Both the position numbers and the translations under genes were made by a program. Below are positions 19,435 through 37,768 of a stretch of DNA of 46,866 nucleotides, in pieces; position 1 is the stretch's first letter, and each line of letters starts with the position of its first letter. The notes beneath the pieces were generated by a model. The model was not told where the DNA came from. It saw only the letters and a list, made by a program, of their open reading frames with translations, and did no database searches. The stretch spans positions 1 to 46,866 of the forward strand of contig CAZTRJ010000003.1 of NCBI GenBank assembly GCA_964616615.1, given 5' to 3'. This DNA is from an uncultured Dehalococcoidales bacterium (GTDB lineage: Bacteria > Chloroflexota > Dehalococcoidia > Dehalococcoidales > DAOVUZ01).

Positions 19435-21426
19435 TTATTTCTCTGCTCTCTGACTAAGAATGTCCTCTAAGTGAGGGAACTTATCCTTCATATGGGGCAA
19501 CCACATAGCCTGACCAAAAATCTTGTCAAAATCCGTCTCCACAGTCAACTCCACATATTCCACCATCCTAGCGATTTTGTCGGCTTCATCCCTCTGGTCT
19601 TTATCCATAAGGGCAACGCGGGCGCCATCACCGGCAGCATTACCCACGGAATAGACATTCTCCATATCACAACCGGGGAACATTCCCAGAACCGCCGCCG
19701 ATACCTTGTCAATAAAACTGCCGAAGGCTCCCGCCAGAACGACCTTATCAATTTTTTCAATGCCCAAGCGACGCATCATTATCTTGGCACCGGAATACAT
19801 CGCCCCCTTGCCTAGCTGGATAGCCCTCACATCAGCCTGGTTAACTGTGATGTCCTGCCCGATGGAGGTTTCTTTTGCCCAGGCAATTACATACTCGGCC
19901 TGCTCCTTCTCGTCAAGGCGTATACGAGGATTGTCTGACTCCTTGGTAAGAACACCATTCGTGGCTACCAGACCCGCCAGCCACAACTGAGGCACAACAT
20001 CAATTATTGCCGAGCCGCAGATACCGTTAGCTCCTAGATTTTCCTCCGCTTCTGTATTCCACTCCTCCCTGCCGATAACCTTGAAGTCAGCCTCTTTGGT
20101 AACCGGGTCTATCTTTATCTTCTCAATAGCCCCCGGAGCGGCACGACACCCGAACTTCATCTCGGCTCCTTCAAACGCCGGCCCAGTGGCACAGGAGGAA
20201 GAAATGAGCTTTTCCCGGTTGCCCAAAACCAGCTCGCCATTAGTGCCGATGTCGATGATGAGCTCCATACTATCCTGCTCATAAGGCTTCTCGCAGAGGA
20301 GCACGCCGACATTATCCGCCCCGACAAAGCCAGCCTCAATAGGAAGAACATGGACATAAGCCCCCGGGGCTATCTTGAGTCCCAGGTCTCTAGCCTTGTA
20401 ATTTACCGAGTGGTGTCTCGCTGCCGGGAAAGGAGCCATGCCGATATACTCGGTATCAACACCCATAAACAGGTGGTGCATACAAGTATTGCCGACTGCG
20501 GTCATGTCAATGATATCCCGCCGCTTGATGCCTGCCTTAAGGGCAGCTCTCCCACAGATTTCATTCAGACCCTTAACGATGGTATCCTGCATTGTCGACG
20601 CGCCGTCCTCGTGGGTCATATTATAGGTAATACGCGCCATCACATCTTCACCGTAAATTGTCTGCGGGTTCATCATGGATTCGGTGGCTACTACCTCGCC
20701 AGTGGACAGGTCACACAGGTAACCAACTACCGTGGTGGTGCCGATATCAAAAGCTATACCATAAGCCTTTTCCACATTTCCCGGCTCTATCAAGATAATT
20801 TCTTTATCCATCCATACCGATACGGTTACCTCCCACTTTTCGGCATATTTCCCACCAATCTTTCGCACCCTGTCCTGCATAGTCTTCAGTACCTGATAGT
20901 CAAGGTCGAGTTGCTTCGATACTCCATACTGCTCATTAAGCGCGTTACATATCCGCTCAAAGTCAGGGAGGGGGTCATAAAATGTCGCTGCCGGCAGTAC
21001 CAAATGGTATTTCTTCACCGCTGGGTTTACCTCAAGCCATGGTATCTCCCTGGCTGCCTTGCGCACAATCTGCTTGGCCAGCCGGCTCTCCTCAGGGACG
21101 AAGACCATAACATCACCGTGGATACAAGCCTGGCAAGCCAGCCGGTAACCTTCCTTCGCCTCCCTATCACTGATAAACTTCTCCTTCTCCGTTTCGTTTA
21201 TTGGACTGAGATGACTCCCGCTTGAGTCAATATGGTATTTCTCAAAGAACCCCTCTTCTATCCTGACCTTACACTTGCCGCAGGTACCCTTTTGAGAGCA
21301 AGTGCCTTCAATACCTACCCCCAGTTTCTCCGAAGCCTCCTTGAGGTTCACTCCGTCTTCGATATCGCCTCTACGACCCGATGGAGTAAAGATAACCTTG
21401 TGCATTTGGTTCCCCTGTTCCGTCAT
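19435..21426 (-). CDS. RACo-type reductive activator of corrinoid proteins ([2Fe-2S] ferredoxin + ASKHA ATPase)
   Basis: N-terminal plant-type ferredoxin Cys pattern (GTCSQKGTCGKCKV ... LACQ). Large ASKHA/DUF4445-like body (AFDIGTTTV, IDIGTNGE, CGSAI). Confidence 0.8.
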   Translation of the reverse strand: MTEQGNQMHKVIFTPSGRRGDIEDGVNLKEASEKLGVGIEGTCSQKGTCGKCKVRIEEGFFEKYHIDSSGSHLSPINETEKEKFISDREAKEGYRLACQACIHGDVMVFVPEESRLAKQIVRKAAREIPWLEVNPAVKKYHLVLPAATFYDPLPDFERICNALNEQYGVSKQLDLDYQVLKTMQDRVRKIGGKYAEKWEVTVSVWMDKEIILIEPGNVEKAYGIAFDIGTTTVVGYLCDLSTGEVVATESMMNPQTIYGEDVMARITYNMTHEDGASTMQDTIVKGLNEICGRAALKAGIKRRDIIDMTAVGNTCMHHLFMGVDTEYIGMAPFPAARHHSVNYKARDLGLKIAPGAYVHVLPIEAGFVGADNVGVLLCEKPYEQDSMELIIDIGTNGELVLGNREKLISSSCATGPAFEGAEMKFGCRAAPGAIEKIKIDPVTKEADFKVIGREEWNTEAEENLGANGICGSAIIDVVPQLWLAGLVATNGVLTKESDNPRIRLDEKEQAEYVIAWAKETSIGQDITVNQADVRAIQLGKGAMYSGAKIMMRRLGIEKIDKVVLAGAFGSFIDKVSAAVLGMFPGCDMENVYSVGNAAGDGARVALMDKDQRDEADKIARMVEYVELTVETDFDKIFGQAMWLPHMKDKFPHLEDILSQRAEK

Positions 21427-21472
21427 CGTTCCCTTCCTTTCTATTTGTATTTTTTATATTTTTGATGGCACA

Positions 21473-21793
21473 CTACTTATGCATAATATCGAATATCACC
21501 ACCACATCACGAGGTAGAGCTAGCTCAGCCTCAGCCTCGATTGCCTTAAGGACAGCCATGGGAACGGGGCAGGTAGTATGCAACTTACACCTTGAAGCAG
21601 CTTTATAAACTTCAGTGTCTACGTGCCGTTTAAGTACCTCTCCCTCGTCTATCTCTGTCAGTGATTCGCCCAGCTCAGTTACCATTTCACAGCCGCTGGT
21701 AATTACGACCTTAAAGCTCTCATCGTCAACTCTGTCAACCTCTACAGTGCTGATAAAACCACAGATACCCGACTTAACGATTACCCTGGTCAT
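21473..21793 (-). CDS. small conserved-looking Cys-containing protein, unknown function
   Basis: 106-aa ORF with an RBS (AGAGGAA), placed just upstream of the activator gene. Four Cys (GICGF, SGCEM, SRCKLHTTCP). No family recognised. Confidence 0.4.
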   Translation of the reverse strand: MTRVIVKSGICGFISTVEVDRVDDESFKVVITSGCEMVTELGESLTEIDEGEVLKRHVDTEVYKAASRCKLHTTCPVPMAVLKAIEAEAELALPRDVVVIFDIMHK

Positions 21794-21815
21794 CCATATT
21801 CCTCTATTCTAACCC

Positions 21816-22126
21816 CTACTGATGGACGGCAAAACCGCCTAAACCTCTGCCTACCCTGTCCATCTGCCGAACATCATACAAACTCCCCCTCGGTAGCATT
21901 TCGCCGCCTGGTTCTAGTGTAAAACCCGGTTTGTGCTTCTTCCCAATCTCAATGGCTTTTCAGCAACTTTCCTAGACATCAGCAGCCGTGCCTACCTGAA
22001 AAACCGCTGGCTCAACGTTCCCGTAGAGAATGTCATTGGGAAAAAGCTTGCTAAAACTCTCAAAAGGTGTTGGACAGTTAAGAGCCCGATAACCACCGAT
22101 GTACCCGGCGCCAAAATTAACTATGC
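21816..22126 (-). pseudogene. decayed C-terminal relic of a URO-D/MtaA-family methyltransferase
   Basis: The - strand translation reads WRIVNFGAGYIGGYRALNCPTPFESFSKLFPNDILYGNVEPAVFQVGTAADV*ESC*KAIEIGKKHKPGFTLEPGGEMLPRGSLYDVRQM. This parallels the C-terminus of the intact paralogs (ILGNVESKVVLTHGTAEEVRAVARKALEAG..MLEPSCG..MPLNNIKVLV). It has in-frame TAG and TGA codons, and the N-terminal ~240 aa are missing. Confidence 0.4.
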
Positions 22127-22231
22127 GCCACTACCCCTTTCCTATTAATAGAAGCGTCAACTACTTTCAGCAGGTAGCGAGCTACTTTATACGCCATTCC
22201 CTCTTGTCTTATTTCCCCTCTCTTTTGTGGG

Positions 22232-22918
22232 CTATTTCTTAGCTGCTGCCTCTTCTTCCTTCAGCATTGCAATCAGCTTCATCGCTTCATCAACCGCCGT
22301 CCCAGCACTTTCTGCATATCCATCAGCATCATATTTTTTAGCTACATCTGGGTTTATCGGAGCACCGCCTATCATAATACGGCACTTGGGATTTTTCTCC
22401 CTTATCTTCTTTATCACCACCGGCATGCCCAGCATGCTAGTCGTCATCATAGCTGAGAGAGCCACAATCTCAGAATTAGTCTTAAGCTGCTCCTCGACAA
22501 ACTTTTCCAGTGGCACATCCCTTCCCAGGTCATAGACGCTCCAGCCAGCAACATCAAACATCATCTTGATCAGGTTCTTGCCGATGTCGTGAACATCGCC
22601 CTCAACCACACCAATGACTACTGTCCCCGCCACTTTTGATTTTCTTCCTGAGGCAATGATGGCCGGCTTTAAGATGTCCAAGCCAGCATACAGCGCATCG
22701 GCACACATCAGGAGTTCCGGGACAAAGTACTCCTTTTTGTTGTACAGGTCGCCTACCGCTACCATCCCATTAGCCAGACCGTCCATTGTGGCGACGAAGG
22801 GGTCTACGCCTTCGTCTATAGCAGCGTGGCTAAGCTCCACCACCTTGTCCTCATCAAAAGCCACCACCGCGTCATGAAGCCCTTTTAGTATTTCCTTAGT
22901 TCTCTCCTCTGAAGCCAA
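22232..22918 (-). CDS. corrinoid (B12-binding) protein of MtaC/MtbC/MttC type
   Basis: B12-binding DxHxxG motif (GDVHDIGKN), SAMMTTSM and GGAP motifs, N-terminal helical cap. TTG start behind AGGAGG. Stop codon is TAG. Confidence 0.85.
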   Translation of the reverse strand: MASEERTKEILKGLHDAVVAFDEDKVVELSHAAIDEGVDPFVATMDGLANGMVAVGDLYNKKEYFVPELLMCADALYAGLDILKPAIIASGRKSKVAGTVVIGVVEGDVHDIGKNLIKMMFDVAGWSVYDLGRDVPLEKFVEEQLKTNSEIVALSAMMTTSMLGMPVVIKKIREKNPKCRIMIGGAPINPDVAKKYDADGYAESAGTAVDEAMKLIAMLKEEEAAAKK

Positions 22919-23117
22919 TTTTCTCCTCCTTTTTTGATTAAAATAACACCTAAATCAGGTGGATAGTCGTTCCTCTTTTTAAGTTTTTTTACCTAGCTGC
23001 CATCACCTCTCTTTCCATCACTTGGCTCTATTGCCCAGCCAGCAAGCGTTTATGCAAGCCAACTTCACTGCCCATACCAAACAATATGAACACCAAGCAC
23101 CTCTATCTACCAGGTAG

Positions 23118-23147
23118 AATATACAACAGGCATATTCTTATTGTCAA
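23118..23147 (-). promoter_or_regulatory. sigma70-like promoter for the corrinoid-protein operon
   Basis: On the - strand: TTGACA (23147-23142), an 18-nt spacer, then TATATT (23123-23118). A small palindrome ACAGTTTAACACTGT sits just upstream. Confidence 0.45.
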
Positions 23148-23207
23148 GAACACAGTTTAACACTGTTTAGCAATTCTGCCCAGATAGCTCTAGCTGAAAA
23201 CTCAGAG

Positions 23208-24233
23208 TCACTCCTTAAGTTTAAAGTTTCTAGCCTCTTCGACAAGGACTTTTATGTTATTGAGCGGCATTAATGCTTCAAGACCACAGCTAGGCTCGAG
23301 CATAGTAACACCAGCCTCAAGCGCTTTCCTAGCTACGGCTCTCACCTCTTCAGCGGTACCATGGGTTAGCACCACTTTGGATTCAACATTACCCAAGATT
23401 TTAACGTCACCTACGATTGGCTTTATCCGGGCGATGTCAACACTTTGCTTAACGCTTATAACGTCAAAACCAATGTCAGCGATGTCTGGTATAAATGGTT
23501 CGACATCCCCACACAGATGTAGGATTCTTATTCCACCCAGATTGTCGGCGATTTTTTTCAGGGCGGGCTTAATATATTCTCTAAAAGTCTTGAGACCCAT
23601 TATGTCAGGCGTTCCCAGAGGCTCGCCAAGTGAGATTACATCAGAGCCAGCACGATATTGTGCCTTGCCATACTCTATGATGGCTTCCACGGCAAAATCA
23701 ATGAACTTTTTGGCACTTTCCGGATTCTTTACTGCCCACATCAAGAATCTCGTTGGCTCGGCTAACTCACCAGCTAGTGAATAAGGACCAAAGACAAAAC
23801 TTGTTACCGGGAGAAAATCTCCCACCTTTCTCCTCGCCAAACGAATGGCTTCCATTACGGCTGGAATTCTACCTCTTTTCAGAAAATCATCTGGCATCTT
23901 CAGGTCCTCGGCTTTATCAAAGGCATGATGTAGCATTGCTGGTTTAAGTTCATGACGGTCATAGAACTGAATTTCACAGCCCAAAACCTCAGGCAATATA
24001 CTGAATTCGTACCCAATGTTCACATTTCCCAGTCCAGTTATCTCCTGGCTAGCAATAGCCAGATTTGCCATCTTTTCCGGGTCTTGAAAGGCTTCAGGCC
24101 AGTATATTCCAGCCGCTTTTTGAATCTCTACGGTAACACTTCCTCCACAAGCCCCGATGCAGGTTGCCGGTACCTCATCAACTTTCCCTCCCAATAAAGC
24201 AGTCAACACCCTTCGTTTTGGAGTGAATTTCAA
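23208..24233 (-). CDS. URO-D/MtaA-CmuA family corrinoid methyltransferase
   Basis: RRVLTALLGGKVDEVP, ILHLCGD, MLEPSCGLEALMPLNNIKVLV. Confidence 0.8.
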   Translation of the reverse strand: MKFTPKRRVLTALLGGKVDEVPATCIGACGGSVTVEIQKAAGIYWPEAFQDPEKMANLAIASQEITGLGNVNIGYEFSILPEVLGCEIQFYDRHELKPAMLHHAFDKAEDLKMPDDFLKRGRIPAVMEAIRLARRKVGDFLPVTSFVFGPYSLAGELAEPTRFLMWAVKNPESAKKFIDFAVEAIIEYGKAQYRAGSDVISLGEPLGTPDIMGLKTFREYIKPALKKIADNLGGIRILHLCGDVEPFIPDIADIGFDVISVKQSVDIARIKPIVGDVKILGNVESKVVLTHGTAEEVRAVARKALEAGVTMLEPSCGLEALMPLNNIKVLVEEARNFKLKE

Positions 24234-24316
24234 TATTTTTATACCTCCTCTTAAAGGTTGATTTACCCCAGTTTAAGCTTTACCAGCCAGTGATAAGAAT
24301 GATAAATAATTTGTCC

Positions 24317-25360
24317 CTACTTTTCCTCAAATTTCACACCATATCTCGGGGCAACTTGTTGAATGGTACCAATTATCATACTATATAGAAGGTCCTCGGG
24401 TAACTTGCTGGCTATGGCGTCAACCACGAGCCTGCCACCACTCAGAGTATCCATATCACCAGTGAAATCGACTTCTTGGTCCAAGCTCACTAAACTGGCT
24501 TTAAGGAAGAAGCTCTCATCGCTGATAATCGCCTTTATATGGTTAATATCTCCTTCCATGCCGAGCACCTTTTCGGCTATCCCCACTAACAGGTAACGCA
24601 GGAAGTCCTTCAGCTCAGATTGGCTAAGAGTGCGCTCGACCTCAATGGCGTACCGCTCCCCCCGCTCCCCTATCTCAGTCACCGACCTAGCAAAAGTCTT
24701 AAACACGGTCATGGTAGCAACGGGAACAACTTCATGCCTTCCCCGAAGCACTATACCTGATAATTCATCTAAACCCGTCCCCGTTTTCGCCGACATCATA
24801 AGTAATCTTGCCCTGGGATTAATGTGCTGAATGATGGCTTGTATCGCTGGGAGCTGGTCCGGCGCCACCAGGTCCATCTTGTTTATCACCACTACCTCCG
24901 CATCCTCTATTTGACGGGACTCAATAAAGGGTAACTTCTCAGTATCTCCCTGATAGGATAAGAGTCGCAGCGCATCAACCAGTATTATTACCGGCGCCAA
25001 GTCCACTGTCTCACCAAACTTTCTCTGGAACGCCTCATACAGTTTTGAGGGCAGGAAATAAGCTACTGGCTCAATGAACATCACATCTGGGATAAACCTC
25101 TCGGTTATGGTATCAATGATGTAACCAAGATGGTCGAGGTAAAAGCAAATGCATCCTCCCGTGATTTCCCCAGCCTCGAACCCAAGACGCTTGGTCATCT
25201 CCCCATCGACATTGATTGCCCCTTTGTCATTAGATACTACCGCCACCCGCTTCCCCTCCCCACTCAGTTTTTTCCCCAGTTCCATAATGGCAGTAGTCTT
25301 GCCGACGGCGTAAAAGCCACCTATGCTGGCAACCCTTACTTTCTCCATTGTTATGCTCAT
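24317..25360 (-). CDS. G3E-family P-loop GTPase (CobW/MeaB/HypB-like) with C-terminal domain
   Basis: G1 GGFYAVGKTT, CobW-like GGCICF (degenerate CxCC), switch IEPVA, NKMDL (NKxD), and a ~130-aa C-terminal extension. Confidence 0.65.
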   Translation of the reverse strand: MSITMEKVRVASIGGFYAVGKTTAIMELGKKLSGEGKRVAVVSNDKGAINVDGEMTKRLGFEAGEITGGCICFYLDHLGYIIDTITERFIPDVMFIEPVAYFLPSKLYEAFQRKFGETVDLAPVIILVDALRLLSYQGDTEKLPFIESRQIEDAEVVVINKMDLVAPDQLPAIQAIIQHINPRARLLMMSAKTGTGLDELSGIVLRGRHEVVPVATMTVFKTFARSVTEIGERGERYAIEVERTLSQSELKDFLRYLLVGIAEKVLGMEGDINHIKAIISDESFFLKASLVSLDQEVDFTGDMDTLSGGRLVVDAIASKLPEDLLYSMIIGTIQQVAPRYGVKFEEK

Positions 25361-25417: not shown

Positions 25418-26008
25418 CTACAATTTAACCCCAATGAGAATAGTCCCCTGACCCCGCACATCAACCCCGTTAAAATAGCCATTTTTCAAGAATAAATCAC
25501 AAGGTGTGGTGGGACTAGCATAAATAATGGAACGACATGAAAAATCGCTCCCCTCCAGGATACACCATTCGGCGAGGAGGCTCGGGGTCTCAAAACAGCA
25601 GACATCCTTGGCGATATCCTGAGGAAAAGATATCCTGTCCTTATAAATAACAAAATTATCCAGCATAAACCAGACATTTTCCTTTTTTTTCATCCTGGCA
25701 ATGGCTTCCTCATCCTCAATTTCTTCACCCACCACCTCCTCTCCTTTCTTTAAAATCAGGGAAGGAGAGCCCCACTCAAACTCTCTGTCAGTCAGGCCAA
25801 CATAGACCAAATCACAAGTTAGCACCTCCCTTATCCCGGTGTTGGCGACCCTACCCAGACCCATCAGGGAGTGCTTTTCGGCCTCATCCTCGATGCTCAA
25901 CACCTGCTGACTATCTTTTTCAGAAAAAGGGCAGATGTCTACGAGCCCCTTCACCTTTTTCAAGGCCGCTATCATCACCGCATCTGCCTTCGTCCGGTCT
26001 ATGGTCAT
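25418..26008 (-). CDS. hypothetical Cys-rich protein
   Basis: 196-aa ORF whose ATG overlaps the stop of the RamA-like gene (ATGA). Acidic linker and several Cys (DICPF, DVCCF, EWC, FSC, TPC). No family recognised. Confidence 0.4.
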   Translation of the reverse strand: MTIDRTKADAVMIAALKKVKGLVDICPFSEKDSQQVLSIEDEAEKHSLMGLGRVANTGIREVLTCDLVYVGLTDREFEWGSPSLILKKGEEVVGEEIEDEEAIARMKKKENVWFMLDNFVIYKDRISFPQDIAKDVCCFETPSLLAEWCILEGSDFSCRSIIYASPTTPCDLFLKNGYFNGVDVRGQGTILIGVKL

Positions 26009-27752: not shown

Positions 27753-28565
27753 TCAGGCTAATGCCTGAACTGCCATGGCAGCGACACCCAGTTGCAGGGG
27801 GTCATGGATAAGTTGAACCATATCTGACTCAGGTTCGTCAATGCCCAGAGGTACGCCCGGCGCTGCCAGGAACAGCCGACATTTCAGCTCCCCGACCCTG
27901 ATAATGTTAGAAGAGGTGGTGGCATCCAGCACCAGGTTGGTCTCACTTAAAATCTCACCCACACTACCCGCCCCTCTTATGCCTGCCCTCCCCGCCAGAA
28001 AATCAGACTGCCGCCTCTGGTCCTTATCATAAACGATGAGCCGGGCCCCGTGCGAGTGAAGCCAGCCCACTGCCGCCTGCCCTACCGGCCCTAATCCCAG
28101 GACAGCCACCGGGCGTCCAGCGACACCTCCGGCAGCAGCAGCCAGGGCGGCAGCATAAACCTCACCCGTAGCCAGTGTATTATCTACCAGTCGGCGGGAA
28201 CGCAAGTTCAATGCCAGAAAGGCGGCATCGTCGGCAAGTAGTATAATTTCTGAACCACCGACCACAGCCTCGCCCAATCCAGCCACATCCTGCCCTCTGG
28301 TAACTTTACAAGGCAGCCCCAGAAAACAGCCTATGTCAGCTACCTGTTCCGAAAAACCAGGAATGATGCCCTGACCGGTAGTGATAGGAATAACCGCCAC
28401 CCAGGACAGAGCTGCCACCCCGGTTCTGTATTGTTCCAGTGTCATATCTGTTGTCTCAAGAGCCAGTTCCAGCAGTCCCATACCAGTTGCAGCCTGCAGC
28501 CTCTGCTCGTATGCTTTCAAATCGATAGGTCCCTGCTTCAGGTCATCTGTGGTCAACCGCGTCAT
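27753..28565 (-). CDS. pylD: pyrrolysine biosynthesis dehydrogenase PylD
   Basis: By-eye alignment with Methanosarcina PylD: LTTDDL, IPITTGQGIIPGFSEQV, GSEIILLADDAAFLALNL, VLGLGPVG Rossmann loop. Overlaps the pylC end by 23 nt. Confidence 0.85.
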   Translation of the reverse strand: MTRLTTDDLKQGPIDLKAYEQRLQAATGMGLLELALETTDMTLEQYRTGVAALSWVAVIPITTGQGIIPGFSEQVADIGCFLGLPCKVTRGQDVAGLGEAVVGGSEIILLADDAAFLALNLRSRRLVDNTLATGEVYAAALAAAAGGVAGRPVAVLGLGPVGQAAVGWLHSHGARLIVYDKDQRRQSDFLAGRAGIRGAGSVGEILSETNLVLDATTSSNIIRVGELKCRLFLAAPGVPLGIDEPESDMVQLIHDPLQLGVAAMAVQALA

Positions 28566-29781
28566 GATTCCCTCCGAGTTGCGGCACTTGGTAAGTAGGG
28601 TCGATAAAATCTTTCAGGTTCAATGCCGAGGCTATGCGCTCCAGGCACCTTTGCCGCTTTTCAGCAACTGATGCCCAGTCAACTCCAGTAAAAATGAGGG
28701 TGCTCTTGAAAGCCGACTTCCCTTCCTGATAGTTAGTCAGGGCTACGGTGGCTCCGAAAAATTCACCATTGGGCCACACCCGGAGTCCGCTCCAGGGTAG
28801 CAAACGCGTCTCGCCAATAGCCTCCAGACAGGAGTTACCTACTGACCAGTGTTCCAGCCAGGCACACCCGGGCCCAGCTACCGCCGGGCGGAGGGGCTGA
28901 CCACATCCATGAGCCTTTACCCATTCCTCCAGCAGGTTGATACCGGAGGCATGATAAACAGCCATGGGCGTCTGACTGGGAAAGCGAGCATCAATCTCCA
29001 GAACAACAACCTCCCCCCTTCGGGGGTCAGCCATGACCTCAACATCCATAAGCCCATTAAGCTTCAGGTGGCGGGCAATGTCAAGGCAGATGGTTTCAAA
29101 CCTCTGATTGAGACTGTGGGGCAATCTCGACGGAGCATAAACCCGCTTGCAATCCAGTTTAGCATCAAATTCCAATTCGGTGACCAGATAGCCGACGCCT
29201 GCCCCTTGCCGGGCAATTACCTCCAAAGAAAGGGAAGGACCGCTATGATAGGCTTCCACCACCATCTCTCCATAACGGGTAGTGAGTTCCGGCAAAACAG
29301 CGTCCAAGGCGGTCCGACTCAACACTACCTGAAGACCATGACTCCCACTGGACGTGGACGGTTTGACTATAACCGGGAAGCGGCAATGAGGCCACTTTTC
29401 CGGGACAGGGATTCCGTGGTCGGCAAAAAAGCGGTTACTGCGTATTTTGGATGATGATACGGCATAGGCTGCAGTATCATGCAAAAATGTCACCCCGGCT
29501 TCCTCACAGGTCTCCGCCAAAAAATCCAGGGTTCCCTTCTCTTCAGTTGCCGGTAGAATCGCATCCATATCCGGCAGCAGACGGCGAAACCGGTGGGGCT
29601 CTTCCTGGATGTCAAAAACGCAGGCTTGATGAGCCAGTGCCAGAGCTGGCGCCTCCGGGTCACGGTCGATAACCGTAACCTGATATCCAGCTTCCCGTGC
29701 CAGGTAGGCGGCTTCAATCCCCTGTAGACGCCCCCCGACAAGTCCAAGGCGAAAGGAATAAGCATGTGGTTTAGGGTTCAT
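28543..29781 (-). CDS. pylC: 3-methylornithine--L-lysine ligase PylC (ATP-grasp)
   Basis: Pre-ATP-grasp N-terminus LGLVGGRLQGIEAAYLAREAGYQVTVID. ATP-grasp body (VIVKPSTSSGSHG, LEIDARFPSQTP). The start is set at ATG 29781 (MNPKPH) rather than the upstream alternative start at 29796. Confidence 0.8.
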   Translation of the reverse strand: MNPKPHAYSFRLGLVGGRLQGIEAAYLAREAGYQVTVIDRDPEAPALALAHQACVFDIQEEPHRFRRLLPDMDAILPATEEKGTLDFLAETCEEAGVTFLHDTAAYAVSSSKIRSNRFFADHGIPVPEKWPHCRFPVIVKPSTSSGSHGLQVVLSRTALDAVLPELTTRYGEMVVEAYHSGPSLSLEVIARQGAGVGYLVTELEFDAKLDCKRVYAPSRLPHSLNQRFETICLDIARHLKLNGLMDVEVMADPRRGEVVVLEIDARFPSQTPMAVYHASGINLLEEWVKAHGCGQPLRPAVAGPGCAWLEHWSVGNSCLEAIGETRLLPWSGLRVWPNGEFFGATVALTNYQEGKSAFKSTLIFTGVDWASVAEKRQRCLERIASALNLKDFIDPTYQVPQLGGNHDAVDHR

Positions 29782-29801
29782 AGCCACCAGTCTCACATAA
29801 T

Positions 29802-29849: not shown

Positions 29850-29878
29850 ATTATAAGCCCAGCCTAAATTCTTGTCAA
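29850..29878 (-). promoter_or_regulatory. consensus sigma70 promoter for pylC-pylD
   Basis: On the - strand: TTGACA (29878-29873), a 17-nt spacer, then TATAAT (29855-29850). Both hexamers are perfect. Confidence 0.65.
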
Positions 29879-30003: not shown

Positions 30004-30834
30004 TTAGATGTTGAGCCGTGCCCCATCCAGATAGATTAGGCTTCTACCGACACGGTGTATATTCCCATTGCCGGTAACTAACATAGCCACCCGCTCCAGC
30101 CCTACACCCAGTCCGGCCCAGGATTCGCTGATGTTCCAGTTGCCATCCAGAGGATGGGGGCCGGTAGCGCCCGAAGCCACCTCCACCCCATCACAGACCA
30201 CATCCAGGGTAAAGCCATAAACCTGAGAGGACTCTTTCACCAAATCATAGGAAAGACCAAATGTGCCCATGACCAGGTCTGCTATCTCAACCAACCGTTC
30301 TTGTGGCTCACCTTGACAACCCAATTCCACCAGGTTCAGCATAGTGAACTCTTCCATGTGGTGGGAGCCTTTGGACTCCTTGCGCCAGCAGGAGCCTATC
30401 TCAAAAAGGCAGATTGGGCGCGGCCACAGACGCTGCAAGTGTCCCAACAGAAAATAGAGGTTGGGCGCCAACATAGGGCGAAGGCAACGCTCTTCATCAA
30501 TCCAGAAAATCTGCTTCCACAGGGGGTCATCCTCAAAAATGTTCATTTTTTTGAGTAATCCCCGGGCTAAAAAGGCGGGGGTAGTCACCTCCACGAACCC
30601 GGCCTGCACCAAGGTTTCGGCTATCTGCGCCGCTATTCTAACCGGGGCAGGACGACGCAGAGTAGTGCGGAGTCTGGTCAAGATTTCCAGGTTTCTTTCC
30701 GACAACTCTTTGGCCAGATGATTGAAGCAGGCGTTACGCTCCGATTCGGAGGCAAAGCTCAGTGCCAGTGCCTCAGGTTCCGCATCCAGTTCAACGAGCC
30801 GCTGTTTTTGAGTACTTGAAAAGGTAACCTTCAT
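30004..30834 (-). CDS. pylS: pyrrolysyl-tRNA synthetase, catalytic subunit (PylSc)
   Basis: By-eye alignment with Desulfitobacterium PylSc and the Methanosarcina PylRS C-domain: CLRPMLAPNLY, ICLFEIGSCWRKES, EEFTMLN, VYGFTLDV, ASGATGPHPLD, GLGVGLERV, SLIYLDGARLNI. The start is set at ATG 30834 behind AAGGAAGG. Confidence 0.9.
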   Translation of the reverse strand: MKVTFSSTQKQRLVELDAEPEALALSFASESERNACFNHLAKELSERNLEILTRLRTTLRRPAPVRIAAQIAETLVQAGFVEVTTPAFLARGLLKKMNIFEDDPLWKQIFWIDEERCLRPMLAPNLYFLLGHLQRLWPRPICLFEIGSCWRKESKGSHHMEEFTMLNLVELGCQGEPQERLVEIADLVMGTFGLSYDLVKESSQVYGFTLDVVCDGVEVASGATGPHPLDGNWNISESWAGLGVGLERVAMLVTGNGNIHRVGRSLIYLDGARLNI

Positions 30835-31174
30835 GTCCGCCTTCCTTGACAAAGGAGGTCCGAGAGTATTTTTCCAGCTTCCACGCCGGCACCCGACAAC
30901 TCTGACAGGGCTTTTCGTACCATTTATTCCTGAGCCACCGTGCCAGGCGACTATTACTGGAACACTTGACACAGACCCTCTGGTTGCAGTGGGTGATTAT
31001 GGTCATCACATTACCCCGGCACTTTACGGAACGAACACCATGGAGGATTCCCTTATGTGACGGCAAAAGCTTAATCCGATTTATGAGGTAATATAAGTCT
31101 TCGCCCTTCCTGAAGACCTTCTTCTTTTTCCGCTTTCCGCCAACCTCAGCGGTAACGGGACTTTGTGGTTCCAT
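30791..31174 (-). CDS. pylSn: pyrrolysyl-tRNA synthetase N-terminal tRNA-binding subunit (PylSn)
   Basis: Matches the PylRS N-domain by eye: LINRIKLLPSHKGILHGV...THCNQRVCVKCSSNSRLARWLRNKWYEKPCQSCRV against M. mazei LISATGLWMSRTGTIHKI...[34 protein letters not shown]. The H/C/C/C Zn ligands are conserved. Its 3' end overlaps pylSc by 44 nt in another frame. Confidence 0.8.
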   Translation of the reverse strand: MEPQSPVTAEVGGKRKKKKVFRKGEDLYYLINRIKLLPSHKGILHGVRSVKCRGNVMTIITHCNQRVCVKCSSNSRLARWLRNKWYEKPCQSCRVPAWKLEKYSRTSFVKEGGHEGYLFKYSKTAAR

Positions 31175-31206: not shown

Positions 31207-31278
31207 TGGCGGAGAGTTCGGGAGTTTAACCCGACTACATGGATTTAGAGTCCACGCGGTCCTGCCGACCAACCCTCC
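31207..31278 (-). tRNA. pylT: tRNA-Pyl (anticodon CUA), CCA encoded
   Basis: The - strand reads GGAGGGT-T-GGTC-GGCAG-GACC-G-CGTGGA-CTCTAAA-TCCATG-TAG-TCGGG-TTAAACT-CCCGA-ACTCTCC-G-CCA. Features: 7-bp acceptor stem, one linker nt, 5-nt D loop, 6-bp anticodon stem, CUA anticodon, 3-nt variable loop, T loop lacking the TPsiC consensus, and G discriminator. Close to the M. barkeri tRNA-Pyl core GGACTCTAAATCC. Confidence 0.92.
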
Positions 31279-31400: not shown

Positions 31401-32090
31401 TTATTTCGGCTTTTGAATGGCTCTCAGCGCTCGGCGCAACATATCCAGCCAGGGTTCTACCGTTTCGGCTCTAAACCGTTCGTAGTCCCTTGCCAACGAT
31501 GCATCTGCCACCGTCAGATAGACCCTAGCCACTTCCGGGCTCTCAAATTCCCCGCTGAGCTTATCCCCTAAAACTTTTTTTAAAGAAGGGTAAAGCTCCT
31601 GGTACGGTTCTAAAAATCCCATAATTTCGAAAACACTGCCTTCCATTTCCTCCAGACACGGAAATTCCTCCAGACACGGAAAGGGTTTACTCAAAATCCT
31701 CTCTAAACAGCGACAACGCTCAGACAATGAATCCAGCCCACCCTGCAAGTAAGCACTGACTGCCTCCGAATCAACACTGATATAATCCATAACAGCCAGT
31801 TGGCAGTCGTCAATGGCATAAATGCTGCAACCTTCGTCGCTAACTTTTAATTCCAGCTCATTTTTCACGAAACTGTAGAGAGCCTCTCCCGTGAGCCTGG
31901 AAGACATCTTCCCAATTATCCGTACCACCTCCCCCATGGATTCCAGTGGAAGTTCAGCAGGAGCCTTCAAGCAGTATAGTTCGCCGAAAAAATGGCACCG
32001 CACGCTTAAAGGCCGGGCTAAGCTCCCAAACGTACCAGGGTCCCAAACCTTTAACAGCAGCATGTCACCCGGCGAGCTTTCGCTGGTCAT
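31401..32090 (-). CDS. hypothetical protein, third gene of the AAA+/VWA module
   Basis: 229-aa ORF whose start overlaps the VWA gene stop by 4 nt. No recognisable motif. Contains the internal PCLEEF/PCLEEM duplication. Confidence 0.45.
   Translation of the reverse strand: MTSESSPGDMLLLKVWDPGTFGSLARPLSVRCHFFGELYCLKAPAELPLESMGEVVRIIGKMSSRLTGEALYSFVKNELELKVSDEGCSIYAIDDCQLAVMDYISVDSEAVSAYLQGGLDSLSERCRCLERILSKPFPCLEEFPCLEEMEGSVFEIMGFLEPYQELYPSLKKVLGDKLSGEFESPEVARVYLTVADASLARDYERFRAETVEPWLDMLRRALRAIQKPK
31647..31682. repeat. 18-nt perfect tandem duplication inside the hypothetical CDS
   Basis: TTCCTCCAGACACGGAAA x2 (31647-31664 and 31665-31682), encoding FPCLEE twice. Confidence 0.9.
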
Positions 32091-33325
32091 TGTTCATACC
32101 CCTGTAACCGGATGACCCTTCCAAATGGCGGCTCACGGTAAGAATTCATAACCCAGATGACATCAAAGGGTTGATTCGAGTCCGGATATTTCCCATCTCC
32201 GTCCGTCAGGTAAACCAGCACTTCAGGCGGGTCATCATCTATCTTGCTAAAAACAGGACGGAAGTCGGTACCACCACTACCACTGAGACACTTCAGGAAA
32301 GACTCAAAATCTGAATCATGCACCGCCATCATATCAGCATGAACGGCGGCATCGCAAGCCAAAAGCCTGGCCCGGAACGAACTGAAGGACTGGAGGATGT
32401 TTCTGATTTCCGCCAAAAACTCGTCAAGCTGCTCATCACTCACGCTTCCCGAGGTGTCCACCGCCACCGCTATTTTTAACAGCTCAGACTTAGAAGATGG
32501 ATAGTATATCCCATATTGAAGCAATCGCCTATCGGGTTTCATCCAATCATAATCATCACTAGAGCGCTGCTTAATATACTGATGCAAAAGCTGACGCCAA
32601 TTCAAACGAGGGTAAGCAAGTTCCCCAACTACCCGGGCAATGCCCAAGGGGAACATACCTTGATGCTTCGCCACCGCCGCCGCTTCAATCGCCCTCTGTT
32701 TCCACAACTCCTCATCTTTACTAGCTTCAGCAGACTTATCCAATGCCTCTTTACTAGCTTCAGCAGACTTATCCAATGCCTCTTTACTAGCTTCAGTGGG
32801 CTTATCCAATGTCTCCCTTGGCCCACTATCCTGTCGGTTGATGTCATGCCCGCCTTCTTCAGTGTTGTCCCACACACCGTGGTCATCAATAGTATCTCCT
32901 TCACCACCAGGCAGGCCTTCTTCATTCAATAGCTCATTGTAAATTTGCTCCGCGCTTTTGTTTTCAAACTCTTTTTCATACAATATCCCTTCAGGCAAAC
33001 GGAAGTGGTCTTTCAAAATAGCGTTAATCACATAGTCCGCCGCCATGTTCCAGAGCCTTTTTTCTCGAGAACCACGCCTCCAGATGTGCCCCAGCGCCAG
33101 ATGCATCACCTCGTGGGCAAAGACCCCCTCAATCTCCTCATCTTCCAGTCTATCTATCTTTTCCGGGAAATAGTACAGACAAATACCGTCGGTCCCGGTT
33201 GGATATTTGCTCTCATGCTCCCTCAGCTCGAGATAGTTGGCGAGATAGCCAAAAAAGGGGTTCTTCAGCAGTAGCTGAACCCTGGCTCTAATTACCCTCT
33301 TCCTGACGCTCGTAGAATCACTCAT
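32087..33325 (-). CDS. HExxH metallopeptidase-like + VWA-like domain protein (DUF2201-type partner of MoxR ATPases)
   Basis: N-terminal FAHEVMHLALGH (HExxH). Central low-complexity repeat linker. C-terminal VWA/MIDAS-like AVDTSGSVS. Overlaps the AAA+ gene stop by 4 nt. Confidence 0.65.
   Translation of the reverse strand: MSDSTSVRKRVIRARVQLLLKNPFFGYLANYLELREHESKYPTGTDGICLYYFPEKIDRLEDEEIEGVFAHEVMHLALGHIWRRGSREKRLWNMAADYVINAILKDHFRLPEGILYEKEFENKSAEQIYNELLNEEGLPGGEGDTIDDHGVWDNTEEGGHDINRQDSGPRETLDKPTEASKEALDKSAEASKEALDKSAEASKDEELWKQRAIEAAAVAKHQGMFPLGIARVVGELAYPRLNWRQLLHQYIKQRSSDDYDWMKPDRRLLQYGIYYPSSKSELLKIAVAVDTSGSVSDEQLDEFLAEIRNILQSFSSFRARLLACDAAVHADMMAVHDSDFESFLKCLSGSGGTDFRPVFSKIDDDPPEVLVYLTDGDGKYPDSNQPFDVIWVMNSYREPPFGRVIRLQGYEQ
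32715..32813. repeat. 33-nt tandem repeat x3 within the VWA protein linker
   Basis: Units at 32715-32747, 32748-32780 and 32781-32813 (TCTTTACTAGCTTCAGCAGACTTATCCAATGCC). The first two are identical and the third has a few changes. Encodes (EASKEALDKSA)n. Confidence 0.9.
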
Positions 33326-34326
33326 AGAATCAAATCTCGGTGCTTTTCGGCAAAATAAACAAATTCCTGCGTTTCTCTAACCGGTAACTCCGCTCTAATA
33401 GCATCCCTTACCAGCAACACGGAGAATTCCTCAGGTAAAAGGCAGGCGTATTCTATAACTCTGGCAGTTTTCCCCATGTCCTCGCGGGCATAACAAACCA
33501 GGGCCGACACCAGAGAGTAGAGCAGGTCCGGACTCTGTGGAACCAGGTCCTCTCCGTTGAGAATCATCTTTGCATCCGGAAGCCGCTCTGTTGCCCGCAG
33601 GTAAGCCAGGAATTCAGTCGCCGCACCCACGCCGATAGCACCGGCTACATCCGTTTTGCTCTCAAGCCCTATAGCCAAAATCTCGGAGACCCTCTCCCAA
33701 CTTCGAGGTGTGGGAAAAGCGTGTTCCATCTTCGCCGGGTCGAAGCGAAACAGCAGGTCAGGTTTGAAGCTTAAAAAACCTATTACCCTGGAGTCAATCT
33801 GATTGGCATACGCCCATTTTTTCCAGTCATCAAGATTGGTTTCAACTTCCCAATGGATGAACCGATTGGCTAACGGGGCTGGCATGGGCACGGTATAGGC
33901 TCTGTCGGTGGACTTATTTCCCGCCGCCACCACCATCCACCCATCCGGCAACACATACTCCCCGACTCTGCGGTCCAAAATAAGCTGATACGCAGCCGCC
34001 TGTACTGAATGAGGCGCCAGGTTCAGCTCGTCCAGGAACAAAATGCCCTTTCCGCTTTGCGGCAGGAAACAGGGTGGCGACCAACTGACCGTTCCCCCAT
34101 CAAACCTGGGCAGCCCCCTAAGGTCAACGGGGTCAAGCAAGGTCAACCGCAAATCCTCAAAATCTATTCCCTCTTCCTCACAGATTTGCTTGACAATGTC
34201 AGACTTCCCTATCCCAGTGGAGCCCCATAAAAAGACGGGCGGTGAGTTTATTCTTGCCCCCAGGCAAAAACTCACCATATGCCTGAGCACCTCCTTAACC
34301 TCGTTAATGCTTTTGGTAGCGAGCAT
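33322..34326 (-). CDS. MoxR/AAA_5-type AAA+ ATPase
   Basis: Walker A GSTGIGKS, Walker B ILFLDELN, sensor region VVAAGN, LANRF motif. The start lies 2 nt after the pylB stop. Confidence 0.8.
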   Translation of the reverse strand: MLATKSINEVKEVLRHMVSFCLGARINSPPVFLWGSTGIGKSDIVKQICEEEGIDFEDLRLTLLDPVDLRGLPRFDGGTVSWSPPCFLPQSGKGILFLDELNLAPHSVQAAAYQLILDRRVGEYVLPDGWMVVAAGNKSTDRAYTVPMPAPLANRFIHWEVETNLDDWKKWAYANQIDSRVIGFLSFKPDLLFRFDPAKMEHAFPTPRSWERVSEILAIGLESKTDVAGAIGVGAATEFLAYLRATERLPDAKMILNGEDLVPQSPDLLYSLVSALVCYAREDMGKTARVIEYACLLPEEFSVLLVRDAIRAELPVRETQEFVYFAEKHRDLIL

Positions 34327-34328
34327 CT

Positions 34329-35399
34329 TTATGAACTCTCCTTTTTATTCCGCCGCTTTTCCTTCTTAAGCCACTTTTGGTACCCTGATACCGGGGCTAC
34401 CCTCAAACCCGCCTGCTCAATCACCGGGGTCACCACCGACACCGTCCGCAGCCCGTCTTCAATACCTAGCTGAGACCTGGATACCCCCGCCAGTCCATAC
34501 CGCGGTGGTATCATCGAGGTCACCACATTGGCTCCGGCATCTAATCGAGCCTTAAGCCCCTCAACCCCATCCACATCCAGCGAGGCTGGTATCAGTCGGT
34601 CGGGAAAGCAAATACGAAATGTGGCAATAGTTCGTAATTCATTCAGTGAATCCGGCGCTTGCCAATCAGCCATCGGGGTGCCACGCTGAGGTCTGAAGGT
34701 CATCGCCCTCACCTGGCTGGCACAAAGGCTTTCTATGGCTTTTACCGCCAATGCCCCGTCAGCGGGGCTGTCTCCTACCCCCAGCAGCAGCCCCTCTTCA
34801 ATAAGCAATCCAGCCCGGCGGGCGTGCACCTTAGCTACCAGACGCCTATTAAAATCCTGCTGTATACGCAAGCGGGCAAAAAGACTTTCATTGAAAGTTT
34901 CCTGATAACAGGCATACCAATCCACCCCCAGGCGGGCAATTTCAACCAAAATCCCCGGTGTTAAAACGCCAGGGGAAACCATAACTGATAGCGGGACAGC
35001 CTCGCGCACCTCATCCACCAATTCCAGAAGCCTCCCCCCACCCCCCTCCAGGTAGTAAGGGTCCTCCCCCATAGTCAAATCCAGCAGGTGAACCCCATCG
35101 GCGGCTAATGCCCGGGCGACATCAAGTATGACCTTTATGCTTTTGCGATAGCGAGGCGAGGCGCTGTTGCCACACCGATAAAGACAAAAATTGCAGTGGT
35201 TTCGGCAGTAGGTGGATAAATAGACAAAACCGTAAAGAAAAACCTCCTCGCCGAAGACACGCTCCCTCAGTGTCCGGGCAGTGGCAAAGAGGCTATCCAG
35301 GGGTTTGCCCGGCGGTGTGGCTAAAAGCGAAGCCACCTCTACTTCATCCAGGGGCTGCCCGCACAAGGCCTTTTCCAAAATGGGTTCAATAGTCCTCAT
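34329..35399 (-). CDS. pylB: methylornithine synthase PylB (radical SAM)
   Basis: By-eye alignment with Methanosarcina PylB: VFLYGFVYLSTYCRNHCNFCLY (CxxxCxxC), DLTMGEDPYY, YQETFNESLF, RLIPASLDVDG, AGANVVTS. Confidence 0.88.
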   Translation of the reverse strand: MRTIEPILEKALCGQPLDEVEVASLLATPPGKPLDSLFATARTLRERVFGEEVFLYGFVYLSTYCRNHCNFCLYRCGNSASPRYRKSIKVILDVARALAADGVHLLDLTMGEDPYYLEGGGGRLLELVDEVREAVPLSVMVSPGVLTPGILVEIARLGVDWYACYQETFNESLFARLRIQQDFNRRLVAKVHARRAGLLIEEGLLLGVGDSPADGALAVKAIESLCASQVRAMTFRPQRGTPMADWQAPDSLNELRTIATFRICFPDRLIPASLDVDGVEGLKARLDAGANVVTSMIPPRYGLAGVSRSQLGIEDGLRTVSVVTPVIEQAGLRVAPVSGYQKWLKKEKRRNKKESS

Positions 35400-35508
35400 A
35401 GTTTGAGCACCTGCTCCAAACCAGCCCGAGTTTATGAATTACGACGCCGCTGAAATAATATTATTAACTCAATTAAGAGTTGAGTAATTCTCACTACTCC
35501 AAATATCC

Positions 35509-35537: not shown

Positions 35538-35607
35538 AAAATCTCACACATACGAGCCTGGCACATAAATAAACCAGGCAGTTAACCTAGTCATACTCCT
35601 AAACACA

Positions 35608-35641
35608 TTCGCCCACCGCCCCAGAAGGGACGGTGGGCGAA
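35608..35641 (-). terminator. hairpin terminator downstream of mtmB
   Basis: TTCGCCCACCG / CGGTGGGCGAA, an 11-bp GC-rich stem 23 nt after the mtmB stop. The trailing U tract is only moderate (TGTGTTT). Confidence 0.5.
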
Positions 35642-35663
35642 CCTCAAATCAAGAGCAAGCTTT

Positions 35664-37046
35664 TTATAGCTTAAGCTTGAACCCGCACCCCTCAAAGGTC
35701 TTTAAGGCTTTATCCATTACCTTGATATACTCATCCGTAGGCGACAGAGAAGCTACATCGTAGCACTCCTGGAAGGTCTTGCCCTTTGGTGCCGTCTTGA
35801 AGTTCTTCTCATAGAGAGACACCAGCTTGTCTAGAGCGACATTGACCTTTTCCAGAGGCTCCCCGGCGACGGCTCGGCTGGCATAAGCCATAAAGCGTGA
35901 TTCCATGGCAGTGGTGTAGTCCCGAGCAACACCTTTTGCCGAGGCATTACCACTAATAATCTCACGCCCGGCGGCAGTATCCGTAACCGCCTGAGCCGCT
36001 GCCTCCAGCAAGCACATCTCAGTGCATGGACCAGCTGAAGTATAGTACTGGTTACCCAAAAGCAGATGGGTATTGCGATCCAGAGCCCGACCACAGTAGC
36101 CGGCAACCATCAACACCTCCCTGGCTGTTGTGTTGCCCCAGCGCACATGAATCGGTCCGTCCAGATGCCAGTCAGCTCCCACTAATAGGAAAGCTCCCAA
36201 ACTGGTGGCTACGTCAATGATGGTGGTCTCCTCGACCCCTCCTGCCCAGCCACCGAAGATGGGCATCTGCTCACTCATAACTATGCAACCGCCTAACTTG
36301 TAGTGGGCGGTGAAGGTAAGGGCATTAATGTCAATCTTGAGCTCATTAAGCTGACTTACCTCGTGGCTATCACTTGGCCGCATGCCGCCCTCAAAATCAG
36401 CAGCTAAAACGCCAGCCGCCGTCAGCGAAGTTTCATTCCCCTACATCGCCATCCCGGGACGACCAGCCCGCTGCTGTGCCATACGGATTCCGTATGCTTC
36501 CTGTTTGACAGCAGCTATCTCATACGGGGAGCCAGGCTTGGGTTCGTGCCCGTTCCAGGTAGCCACAACACCGTCAACGATGGAATCTACCAAGGGCTCC
36601 CGGGCATACGCCTCCATCATCGGGATAAAGATGTTCTCCGATACCGGAGCCCCGGTCGGACCACCCTGATTAATGGGTGGGCGGGGGTCATCAAATGTCC
36701 GTGACTTCATCTGCTCCGAATCCTTACCCTCACCTAGCGTGAGGCAGTCAGGAGCCGCCGCTGCCCCCATCATAACCTCGTCCTCGGTGTACTTGCAGAC
36801 ACGACAGGTATCCATGTTGAAATAGCCCTGTGTTACGAGCATTTCAACACCGGCACGGAACAAACGGTCACAGAGGTCATTGTCAGTCGGGACTATCTTG
36901 CTCCTGTCAAATTGAAGCTTATACTTCTCCTTCAATGCATGTGCCGTTTTGAAGGTGAGTACTTCATCCCACTCTTTCTCTGTCACCCTGGGGCCGGTGC
37001 GCATTCGGTCGTAGGTCTCAAACACGCCGACCTTTTCCCTAAACAT
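35664..37046 (-). CDS. mtmB: monomethylamine:corrinoid methyltransferase MtmB with in-frame UAG (pyrrolysine) at codon 202
   Basis: ORFs 36441..37046 and 35664..36383 are in the same frame. They are joined through TAG (36443-36441) plus 19 codons. The read-through gives GRPGMAM-O-GNETSLTAAGVLAADFEGGMRPSDSHEVSQLNELKIDINAL, which matches M. barkeri MtmB GRPGMGV-O-GPETSLSAQGNISADCTGGMTCTDSHEVSQLNELKIDLDAI. 460 aa in total. AGGAGG RBS. Confidence 0.92.
36441..36443 (-). other. recoded amber codon (Pyl) inside mtmB
   Basis: + strand CTA equals TAG on the - strand, at the position homologous to the pyrrolysine codon of archaeal mtmB. Confidence 0.9.
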
Positions 37047-37129: not shown

Positions 37130-37768
37130 TTATCCCAGTAGTTTCCTGGCTACCGTCACCGCCTCGGCCCCATTCTCGGCCCATCCGTCAGCGCCAATCT
37201 CTTTTATCCACTCCGGAGTCGTTGGTGCCCCACCAAACATGGTCTTGAATTTGTCGCGAACACCTCGTTCCTTAAGGGCGGCAACAATCTCCCGCTGGGA
37301 AAACATGGTCGTGCTCATAAGAGCTGAGCCAGTAATCATGTCAACCTTCTCCTCCTCAGCCACATCACACACGTGCTCTATGGGAACATCACGACCCAGG
37401 TCCACCGTCTCAAATCCGCTGGCAGTCAACAGGATTTTCACGATATTTTTGCCAATATCATGGATATCCCCTTCCACGGTATGACAGATGATCTTGCCTT
37501 TGGCTTTGTAGCCTCCCTTAATAAGGGGCTTCAGGATTTCCACCGCTTCGGTAAAGGCTTCGGCTGAGATAATAATCTGGGGAACAAAGACCTCCGCCTT
37601 ATCAAACAAATCGCTGATAACATTCATACCTGCCCCCAACCCCTCGTCAATGCACTTCATAAGGTCCAGATTCTCAGCCGCAGCCTCTTTGGCGGCTGCC
37701 TTAGCCCCATCCACATCCTGCTCAACAATAGCCTTCTTTAACTTTTCCAGAATTTCCTTCTCGGCCAT
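37130..37768 (-). CDS. mtmC: monomethylamine corrinoid protein (B12-binding)
   Basis: DxHxxG motif GDIHDIGKN, SALMSTTM, GGAP. Lies immediately upstream of mtmB, as in the archaeal mtmCB arrangement. Confidence 0.85.
   Translation of the reverse strand: MAEKEILEKLKKAIVEQDVDGAKAAAKEAAAENLDLMKCIDEGLGAGMNVISDLFDKAEVFVPQIIISAEAFTEAVEILKPLIKGGYKAKGKIICHTVEGDIHDIGKNIVKILLTASGFETVDLGRDVPIEHVCDVAEEEKVDMITGSALMSTTMFSQREIVAALKERGVRDKFKTMFGGAPTTPEWIKEIGADGWAENGAEAVTVARKLLG

Follow-up and report, generated by a model that had tools for sequence, protein, structure and literature searches.

A MoxR-like ATPase, a zincin-vWA protein and a third partner inside the pyrrolysine operon of a Dehalococcoidales clade

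Several MoxR ATPases act with a von Willebrand factor A (vWA) partner as client-linked metallochaperone pairs (NorQ/NorD, CbbQ/CbbO, CoxD/CoxE and RavA/ViaA), and BchI/BchD and CobS/CobT are distant analogues. To our knowledge, the biosynthesis and decoding of pyrrolysine (Pyl) are thought to need only pylTSBCD. Here we describe three genes inside a pyl cluster of an uncultured Dehalococcoidales bacterium (contig CAZTRJ010000003.1 of assembly GCA_964616615.1; the analysed stretch of 46,866 nucleotides (nt) is referred to as the window). The genes encode a MoxR-like AAA+ ATPase, a zincin (HExxH)-vWA protein and a 229-amino-acid (aa) protein that we call X, and this trio lies between pylB and pylT-pylSn-pylSc. 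Two further kinds of described system resemble it. Jumbo phages carry a pair consisting of a MoxR ATPase and a metallopeptidase-vWA protein, with a proposed role in virion assembly (Iyer et al. 2021, PMC7824862), and vWA-MoxR ternary systems have been put forward as conflict systems (Kaur et al. 2020, PMC7159879).

The trio resembles each of these only in part. With the phage and archaeal MoxR AAA+/metallopeptidase-vWA pair (PHROG 1297 and 1314, arCOG06980) it shares full-length profile matches, overlapping neighbouring genes and the retention of HExxH and the metal-ion-dependent adhesion site (MIDAS). However, the trio is chromosomal, sits in a pyl operon coupled to pylB and includes a third, helical protein, and the virion assembly and processing proposed for the phage pair cannot apply to it as such. 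Like the client-linked pairs, it combines an AAA+ ATPase and a MIDAS vWA partner, encoded alongside a metallo- or cofactor enzyme in one operon, but it shows no detectable close sequence kinship to them, carries an extra zincin domain, and other lineages do not share its linkage to the presumed client. The ternary conflict systems likewise comprise three components, a MoxR ATPase and a vWA protein among them, but the trio has no VMAP or effector domains and no PADLOC match, and its context is metabolic. The AAA/vWA family is already known, with its function uncharacterised; the ternary arrangement embedded in a pyl cluster is new. A literature search found no paper describing a pyl cluster with MoxR/vWA genes, in keeping with the initial annotation of this DNA, which was made from the sequence alone and knew of none.

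The trio genes are intact, conserved, strongly selected and embedded in the operon. We favour the reading, at a probability of about 0.55, that they form a self-contained remodelling machine that was captured once into the pyl operon and is now co-expressed with the pyl genes. Its fixation between pylB and pylT-pylSn-pylSc would date to the ancestor of a single shallow clade of Chloroflexota labelled Dehalococcoidales.

Coupling to pylB and conservation within the clade

The minus-strand order, taken from the open reading frame (ORF) listing, ARAGORN and the sequence itself, is mtmC, mtmB, pylB, the AAA+ gene, the HExxH/vWA gene, X, tRNA-Pyl, pylSn, pylSc, pylC, pylD and ramA (Table 1). At the pylB/AAA junction (TCA TAA AG ATG) the pylB stop is followed after 2 nt by the ATPase start, the AAA/vWA and vWA/X junctions are both ATGA overlaps, and a 122-nt spacer separates X from tRNA-Pyl. 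Relatives keep these arrangements: TAA-2nt-ATG occurs at pylB/AAA in 5/5, ATGA at AAA/vWA in 11/11, and ATGA or GTGA at vWA/X in 11/11. The initial annotation had described a trio wedged in the same orientation between pylB and pylT-pylSn-pylSc and translationally coupled to pylB, and both descriptions held once the coordinates were verified and the junctions were read directly. The order pylB-AAA-vWA-X-pylT-pylSn-pylSc is kept in every related contig that spans the region, a single deletion variant (L107) excepted.

All three genes have orthologues and show ratios of nonsynonymous to synonymous substitution (dN/dS) below 1, and are thus real genes and not chance ORFs. Pairwise dN/dS is 0.10-0.11 for the ATPase, 0.11-0.21 for the vWA protein, 0.39-0.66 for X and 0.04-0.27 for the pyl genes. 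Purifying selection on the ATPase and vWA genes is strong and no weaker than that on the pyl genes, and in at least 12 orthologous copies they contain no frameshifts or stops, with all motifs intact. Because synonymous divergence (dS) among relatives is only 0.04-0.44, the clade is shallow; these values match those of the flanking genes. The trio resembles its neighbours in G+C content (GC), GC at third codon positions (GC3) and codon usage, so it is not a recent arrival, and a recent horizontal acquisition is rejected on this composition together with the dS values.

L107 is a 1.2-kb metagenomic contig (Ga0114923_10266825) in which the 3' end of pylB is fused to X at about codon 68 and the ATPase and vWA genes are missing (junction at 621-709, corresponding to window positions 31888-34352). 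The remnant of X has an in-frame TAA and appears only recently disabled, and the pylB fragment is open, with a dN/dS of 0.19-0.25. As a natural deletion represented by one short contig, L107 is suggestive, not decisive.

Transcription signals are consistent with a shared transcript. The G+C-rich hairpin that directly follows mtmB is invariant across five relatives and is likely a terminator, marking a transcript boundary upstream of pylB. Between the genes of the pylB...pylSc block, a scan called no terminator-like or promoter sites. The invariant hairpin and the lack of an internal terminator-like site fit a probable transcription unit, pylB-AAA-vWA-X-pylT-pylSn-pylSc, in which pylB would be the first gene; the earlier suggestion of a single transcript agrees with this pattern. 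An AT-rich conserved stretch with an inverted repeat upstream of pylB is a candidate promoter or operator for regulated pyl expression, and was not called by the consensus promoter scan. A search of the 122-nt spacer for a pylT-specific promoter found nothing convincing. One relative (L101) lacks most of this spacer, and tRNA-Pyl is invariant in the relatives.

The three proteins and where their relatives occur

The ATPase matches Pfam AAA_5 at 24.3 bits (cut-off 22) and phrog_1297 over its full length (2.3e-93), scores below the cut-offs of AAA_3 and bpMoxR (16.9 bits for bpMoxR against a threshold of 27), and was matched by no NCBIfam model. Its Walker A (GSTGIGKS) and Walker B (ILFLDE) motifs are both intact, and both are conserved in the 57% identical ATPase of an archaeal chromosomal contig (L093). 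At E ≤ 0.01 the only PDB matches are midasin AAA domains, and that search detected no closeness to CbbQ, NorQ or RavA; the analogy with CbbQ/O- and NorQ/D-type pairs drawn in the initial annotation does not extend to close sequence similarity.

The zincin-vWA protein matches DUF2201_N (8.5e-41, 140.8 bits, cut-off 23.2) and DUF2201 (1.4e-23, 83.7 bits, cut-off 26.4) in that order, and phrog_1314 over its full length (6.7e-90). Its metal site (HEVMHLALGH) and MIDAS motif (DTSGS...T...D) are intact, and residues H70, E71, H74, H79, D289, S291, S293, T352 and D374, invariant or nearly so in 78 homologues, are all present. The AlphaFold2 model has a predicted local distance difference test (pLDDT) score of 83.7, and its C-terminal domain has a vWA fold that Foldseek matched to the CLCA1 vWA domain, BatB and the MDN1 MIDAS domain with a probability of 1.0. 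The N-terminal zincin-like domain shows weak profile similarity to M48 and minigluzincin, and its peptidase role is putative. No solved structure was found for DUF2201. The linker between the two domains (pLDDT below 50) contains a tandem repeat of EASKEALDKSA, which makes this copy 412 aa long, compared with 391-395 aa in relatives.

X belongs to no Pfam, NCBIfam, PHROG or PADLOC family, and a direct search returned 30 homologues, all of the same clade, at 57-86% identity. Nevertheless X, called simply an unknown protein at first, is not an orphan, since it has remote homologues beside the ATPase/vWA pair in archaea. Comparison of hidden Markov model (HMM) profiles with hhalign matched it to a 202-aa ORF of L093 (probability 91.8%, E 7e-7), which sits between the 57% identical ATPase and a 40% identical vWA protein. 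A weaker match is a 248-aa Methanonatronarchaeum protein (AMET1_0357-type) encoded immediately upstream of a vWA gene (arCOG06980). A profile search with X and its archaeal homologues gained only Methanonatronarchaeum orthologues, and a metagenome scan with the X alignment found 15 short contigs, all of the same clade, and no deeper-branching pyl-linked members. By these sequence relationships, X is a divergent representative of a partner family found with the AAA-vWA pair in archaea, and the trio is therefore a ternary module older than its association with pyl genes. The archaeal loci resemble the one described here in their ATPase (57% identity), vWA protein (37-40% identity) and X homologue, but their order is AAA-X-vWA (L093) or X-vWA (Methanonatronarchaeum, AMET1_0357/0358) instead of AAA-vWA-X, and no pyl genes lie within 10 kb of them.

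The structure prediction for X proposed at the outset yielded a mostly helical AlphaFold2 model (pLDDT 71, from a shallow alignment); neither PDB nor BFVD gave a significant fold match (best E 0.4, TM score below 0.2), and hence no functional lead. X carries an in-frame tandem repeat of 18 nt x 2 (FPCLEE) at 31647-31682. In two further contigs, hypothetical proteins (L109, 6253-7167; L110, 3522-4358) are encoded immediately upstream of AAA-vWA pairs whose ATPases are 49-52% identical to that of the window, and these proteins match the X profile marginally (E 0.03-1.4). A fast-evolving third partner of AAA-vWA pairs may be more general.

How often does such a trio accompany pyl genes? Of the 510 pylB loci detected by scanning the genome collection with a PylB alignment, the 80 best were examined. 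Among these 80, a Dehalococcoidales metagenome-assembled genome (L012, PylB 91% identical) is the only species representative in the clade, and the other 79 have PylB identities of ≤ 55%. No homologue of the ATPase, the vWA protein or X was detected within ±10 kb of those 79 loci (tblastn; DUF2201 HMM, 119 sequences), which include other Dehalococcoidia and several loci with mtmB nearby, and in most of which pylC directly follows pylB. The identity of vWA homologues falls from 81-94% within the clade to ≤ 45% in the next closest. Six outgroup contexts (L008, L010, L092, L093, L109 and L110) contain no pyl or methyltransferase genes. The initial annotation had held that the trio would be a chance insertion if its homologues never co-occurred with pyl or methyltransferase genes elsewhere; outside one shallow clade this is essentially what we see (0/79 other pylB loci, 0/6 outgroup contexts). 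Thus, among the best 80 of 510 pylB loci, linkage to pylB, pylS or mtmB did not recur in independent lineages, whereas linkage and selection are both conserved within the module-bearing clade, again with the exception of L107.

The outgroup contexts also indicate where such modules usually reside. L008 and L010 are mobile-element-like contigs with their own polymerases, primase, NrdD and Cas4-like nuclease; their AAA-vWA pair lies among genes for replication and nucleotide metabolism (PolB or PolD, primase, NrdD, radical S-adenosylmethionine (SAM) activase), away from structural genes. Other contexts are ordinary archaeal chromosomal ones, L092 being a Methanonatronarchaeum chromosome. By tblastn, 696 phage records, among them jumbo phages and Thermus phage phiFa, have a homologue. 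Modules of this type abound in phages and in the mobile elements of archaea, and also stand alone in archaeal chromosomes. Methanonatronarchaeum uses pyrrolysine (PMC5852551), and in M. thermophilum the X-vWA genes AMET1_0357/0358 lie on a separate contig from pylS and pylB, their products being detected at low abundance in the proteome (PMC5852551 supplement). In Methanonatronarchaeum sp. AMET-Sl, no pyl genes occur within 10 kb of the X-vWA pair.

Readings of the trio

So, is the trio an accessory of pyrrolysine? We favour a captured self-contained module because all the evidence for a role in Pyl comes from one capture event, and because such modules normally reside in phages, in mobile elements and at unrelated chromosomal sites. 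What ties the module to pyrrolysine, on the evidence available, is shared expression that stems from this single event, not a general pyl accessory function. By analogy with characterised MoxR/vWA pairs, the MoxR-like AAA_5 ring would use ATP to remodel a client held through the MIDAS site of the vWA domain, the zincin domain would bind or cleave that client, and X could serve as adaptor, regulator or substrate; the machine would be translated in tandem with pylB.

Several observations weigh against a capture with no dedicated role. The 2-nt coupling to pylB and the place upstream of pylT/pylS are what would be expected of a dedicated accessory factor. Selection holds the ATPase and vWA genes at least as tightly as the pyl genes, although they are apparently expressed only together with these, and such constraint is more readily understood if their activity is important during Pyl production. 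X-like proteins were detected in three lineages, and both of the characterised ones (this clade and Methanonatronarchaeum) use pyrrolysine, the third being L093. In addition, the co-transcription of the trio with pyl genes that the capture reading assumes is our reading of the sequence, and its pylB survey took in the best 80 of 510 loci.

The main alternative, which we consider rather unlikely, is that the trio is a dedicated accessory of pyrrolysine or methylamine metabolism, responsible for the maturation, repair or assembly of something encoded in its own regulon. Candidate clients are the Fe-S radical-SAM enzyme PylB, the Pyl-containing MtmB, its corrinoid partner and the PylSn-PylSc-tRNA complex. 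Conserved translational coupling, a position within the pylB...pylS unit with no promoter or terminator called between genes, strong purifying selection on the ATPase and vWA protein, fully ameliorated composition, and the otherwise narrow occurrence of X-like proteins (Pyl-using Methanonatronarchaeum and L093 only) all argue for it, and it would have counterparts in NorQ/NorD and CbbQ/CbbO, whose targets are adjacently encoded enzymes. However, the linkage reflects a single evolutionary event with no counterpart at the 79 other pylB loci, even those in Dehalococcoidia or bearing mtmB, and the X-vWA genes of M. thermophilum and AMET-Sl lie apart from pyl genes. Moreover, the AAA/vWA family is mainly phage-borne, no close relationship of the ATPase to CbbQ, NorQ or RavA is detectable, PylB itself is an ordinary, full-length member of TIGR03910, and L107 lacks both AAA and vWA genes while its pylB remains open and constrained. 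The accessory-module proposal of the initial annotation thus retains its operon position, coupling, intact motifs and constraint, but not a recurrence outside the clade, and must contend with the abundance of the family in phages and with the L107 deletion.

A captured trio could also have been recruited in this lineage to serve a pyrrolysine system as its first known dedicated chaperone, for PylB loading or repair or for the assembly or processing of MtmB or its corrinoid partner. We regard this as unlikely; if true, it would explain the coupling to pylB and the strong constraint, and maybe also the X-like proteins in Pyl-using Methanonatronarchaeia.

A conflict or anti-virus system of the vWA-MoxR ternary kind, or else a viral module that has been domesticated, could sit in the pyl operon by chance and act in defence or in the rivalry among mobile elements; we judge this quite improbable. 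Proposals that ternary MoxR-vWA systems serve in conflict (PMC7159879), the closest vWA outgroups on mobile-element-like contigs with polymerases, primase and Cas4-like nuclease, and the fast evolution of X (dN/dS 0.39-0.66) point in this direction. Yet PADLOC gives no meaningful match for any of the three proteins, bpMoxR stays below threshold, no effector or VMAP-type domain is present, the neighbours are methylotrophy genes and form no defence island, and 2-nt and 4-nt junctions inside a metabolic operon are unusual for defence cassettes. A neutral or decaying insertion of passengers without current function, suggested by the restriction to one lineage and by the deletion in L107, is very improbable and already disfavoured, given a dN/dS of 0.10-0.21 for the ATPase and vWA genes over dS 0.2-0.4, intact motifs, the absence of frameshifts and stops in at least 12 copies, and the retained start-stop overlaps.

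The wider locus and its implications

Table 1 Genes and sequence features in and around the pyl cluster, in minus-strand order (positions refer to the window)
Feature	Position	Strand	Basis
mtmC	37130-37768	minus	
mtmB, monomethylamine methyltransferase	35664-37046	minus	Pfam MtmB on both halves, 1.1e-71 and 4.8e-114
16-bp G+C-rich hairpin directly 3' of mtmB stop	35607-35642	minus	77-nt stretch, minimum free energy -45.4 kcal/mol, z = -7.9
AT-rich conserved stretch with inverted repeat ACTCAA-N7-TTGAGT (35467-35485)	35455-35485	minus	Alignment; 55-85 nt upstream of pylB
pylB, methylornithine synthase (radical SAM)	34329-35399	minus	TIGR03910, 2.2e-126, 421 bits (cut-off 348)
AAA_5/MoxR-like AAA+ ATPase, 334 aa	33322-34326	minus	Pfam AAA_5, phrog_1297
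Zincin (HExxH)-vWA protein, 412 aa	32087-33325	minus	DUF2201_N/DUF2201, phrog_1314
33-nt x 3.1 in-frame tandem repeat (EASKEALDKSA)	32715-32815	minus	Tandem Repeats Finder; zincin/vWA linker
X, third component, 229 aa, mostly helical	31401-32090	minus	No named family
pylT, tRNA-Pyl, anticodon CTA (CUA in RNA)	31207-31278	minus	ARAGORN
pylSn	30791-31174	minus	TIGR03912, 1.1e-28
pylSc	about 30004-30834	minus	TIGR02367, 6.5e-83
Sigma-70-like TTGACA-17-TATAAT, 12/12 consensus match	29850-29878	minus	Between pylSc and pylC
pylC	28543-29796	minus	TIGR03909, 1.2e-96
pylD	27753-28565	minus	TIGR03911, 3.1e-58

Like the canonical bacterial pyl cluster (pylT-pylSc-pylB-pylC-pylD-pylSn and variants), this one has all components apparently intact, together with TAG-bearing mtmB and ramA, but unlike in most other pyl loci, pylB is parted from pylC-pylD by the trio and pylT-pylSn-pylSc. 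PylB, PylSn, PylSc, PylC, PylD and RamA all exceed the cut-offs of their NCBIfam equivalog models. The one in-frame stop of mtmB, a TAG at 36441-36443, is presumed to be the Pyl codon. About 7/33 of the larger ORFs in the window end in TAG; UAG is thus not avoided as a stop, so Pyl decoding must be regulated or context-dependent.

The pylSc start is likely the ATG at 30834, giving a 44-nt overlap with pylSn; orthologues in relatives are annotated at 276 aa. The sigma-70-like site between pylSc and pylC probably provides a separate start for pylC-pylD. At the same pylSc/pylC junction, three relatives (L002, L003 and L004) have a three-gene insertion encoding proteins of 114 aa and 138 aa and an opposite-strand NYN-domain protein. 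Here pylC (417 aa) and pylD (270 aa) overlap by 23 nt (28543-28565), and the corresponding lengths in relatives are 437 and 242 aa; because the 270-aa PylD matches TIGR03911 end to end, the pylD starts of the relatives may be miscalled.

Beyond ramA, the minus strand encodes a CobW-like GTPase, three URO-D/MtaA-like genes, a corrinoid protein, an MtrH-like gene and a RACo-type activase (13697-25360). This second methyltransferase set downstream makes the pyl cluster part of a larger methylotrophy island. A prophage remnant is ruled out, as the surrounding 47 kb is this island and no phage genes were seen. A 196-aa ORF that overlaps the ramA stop (25418-26008, minus strand) has no family match and is conserved in two relatives (L005 and L006), and in two others (L001 and L002) a 410-aa CdhD/FeS-domain protein replaces it.

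What would the trio mean for the biology of pyrrolysine? Should its link to the pyl genes be one of position alone, the locus would still illustrate clearly the fixation of a virus-type module in the operon of an essential pathway, but would say little about pyrrolysine itself. A true accessory chaperone would be new biology, and could raise heterologous Pyl production for genetic-code expansion. The locus also offers a rare handle on the large, uncharacterised phage and archaeal family of MoxR and zincin-vWA (DUF2201) proteins, with a metabolic operon, few candidate clients and a recognisable third partner.

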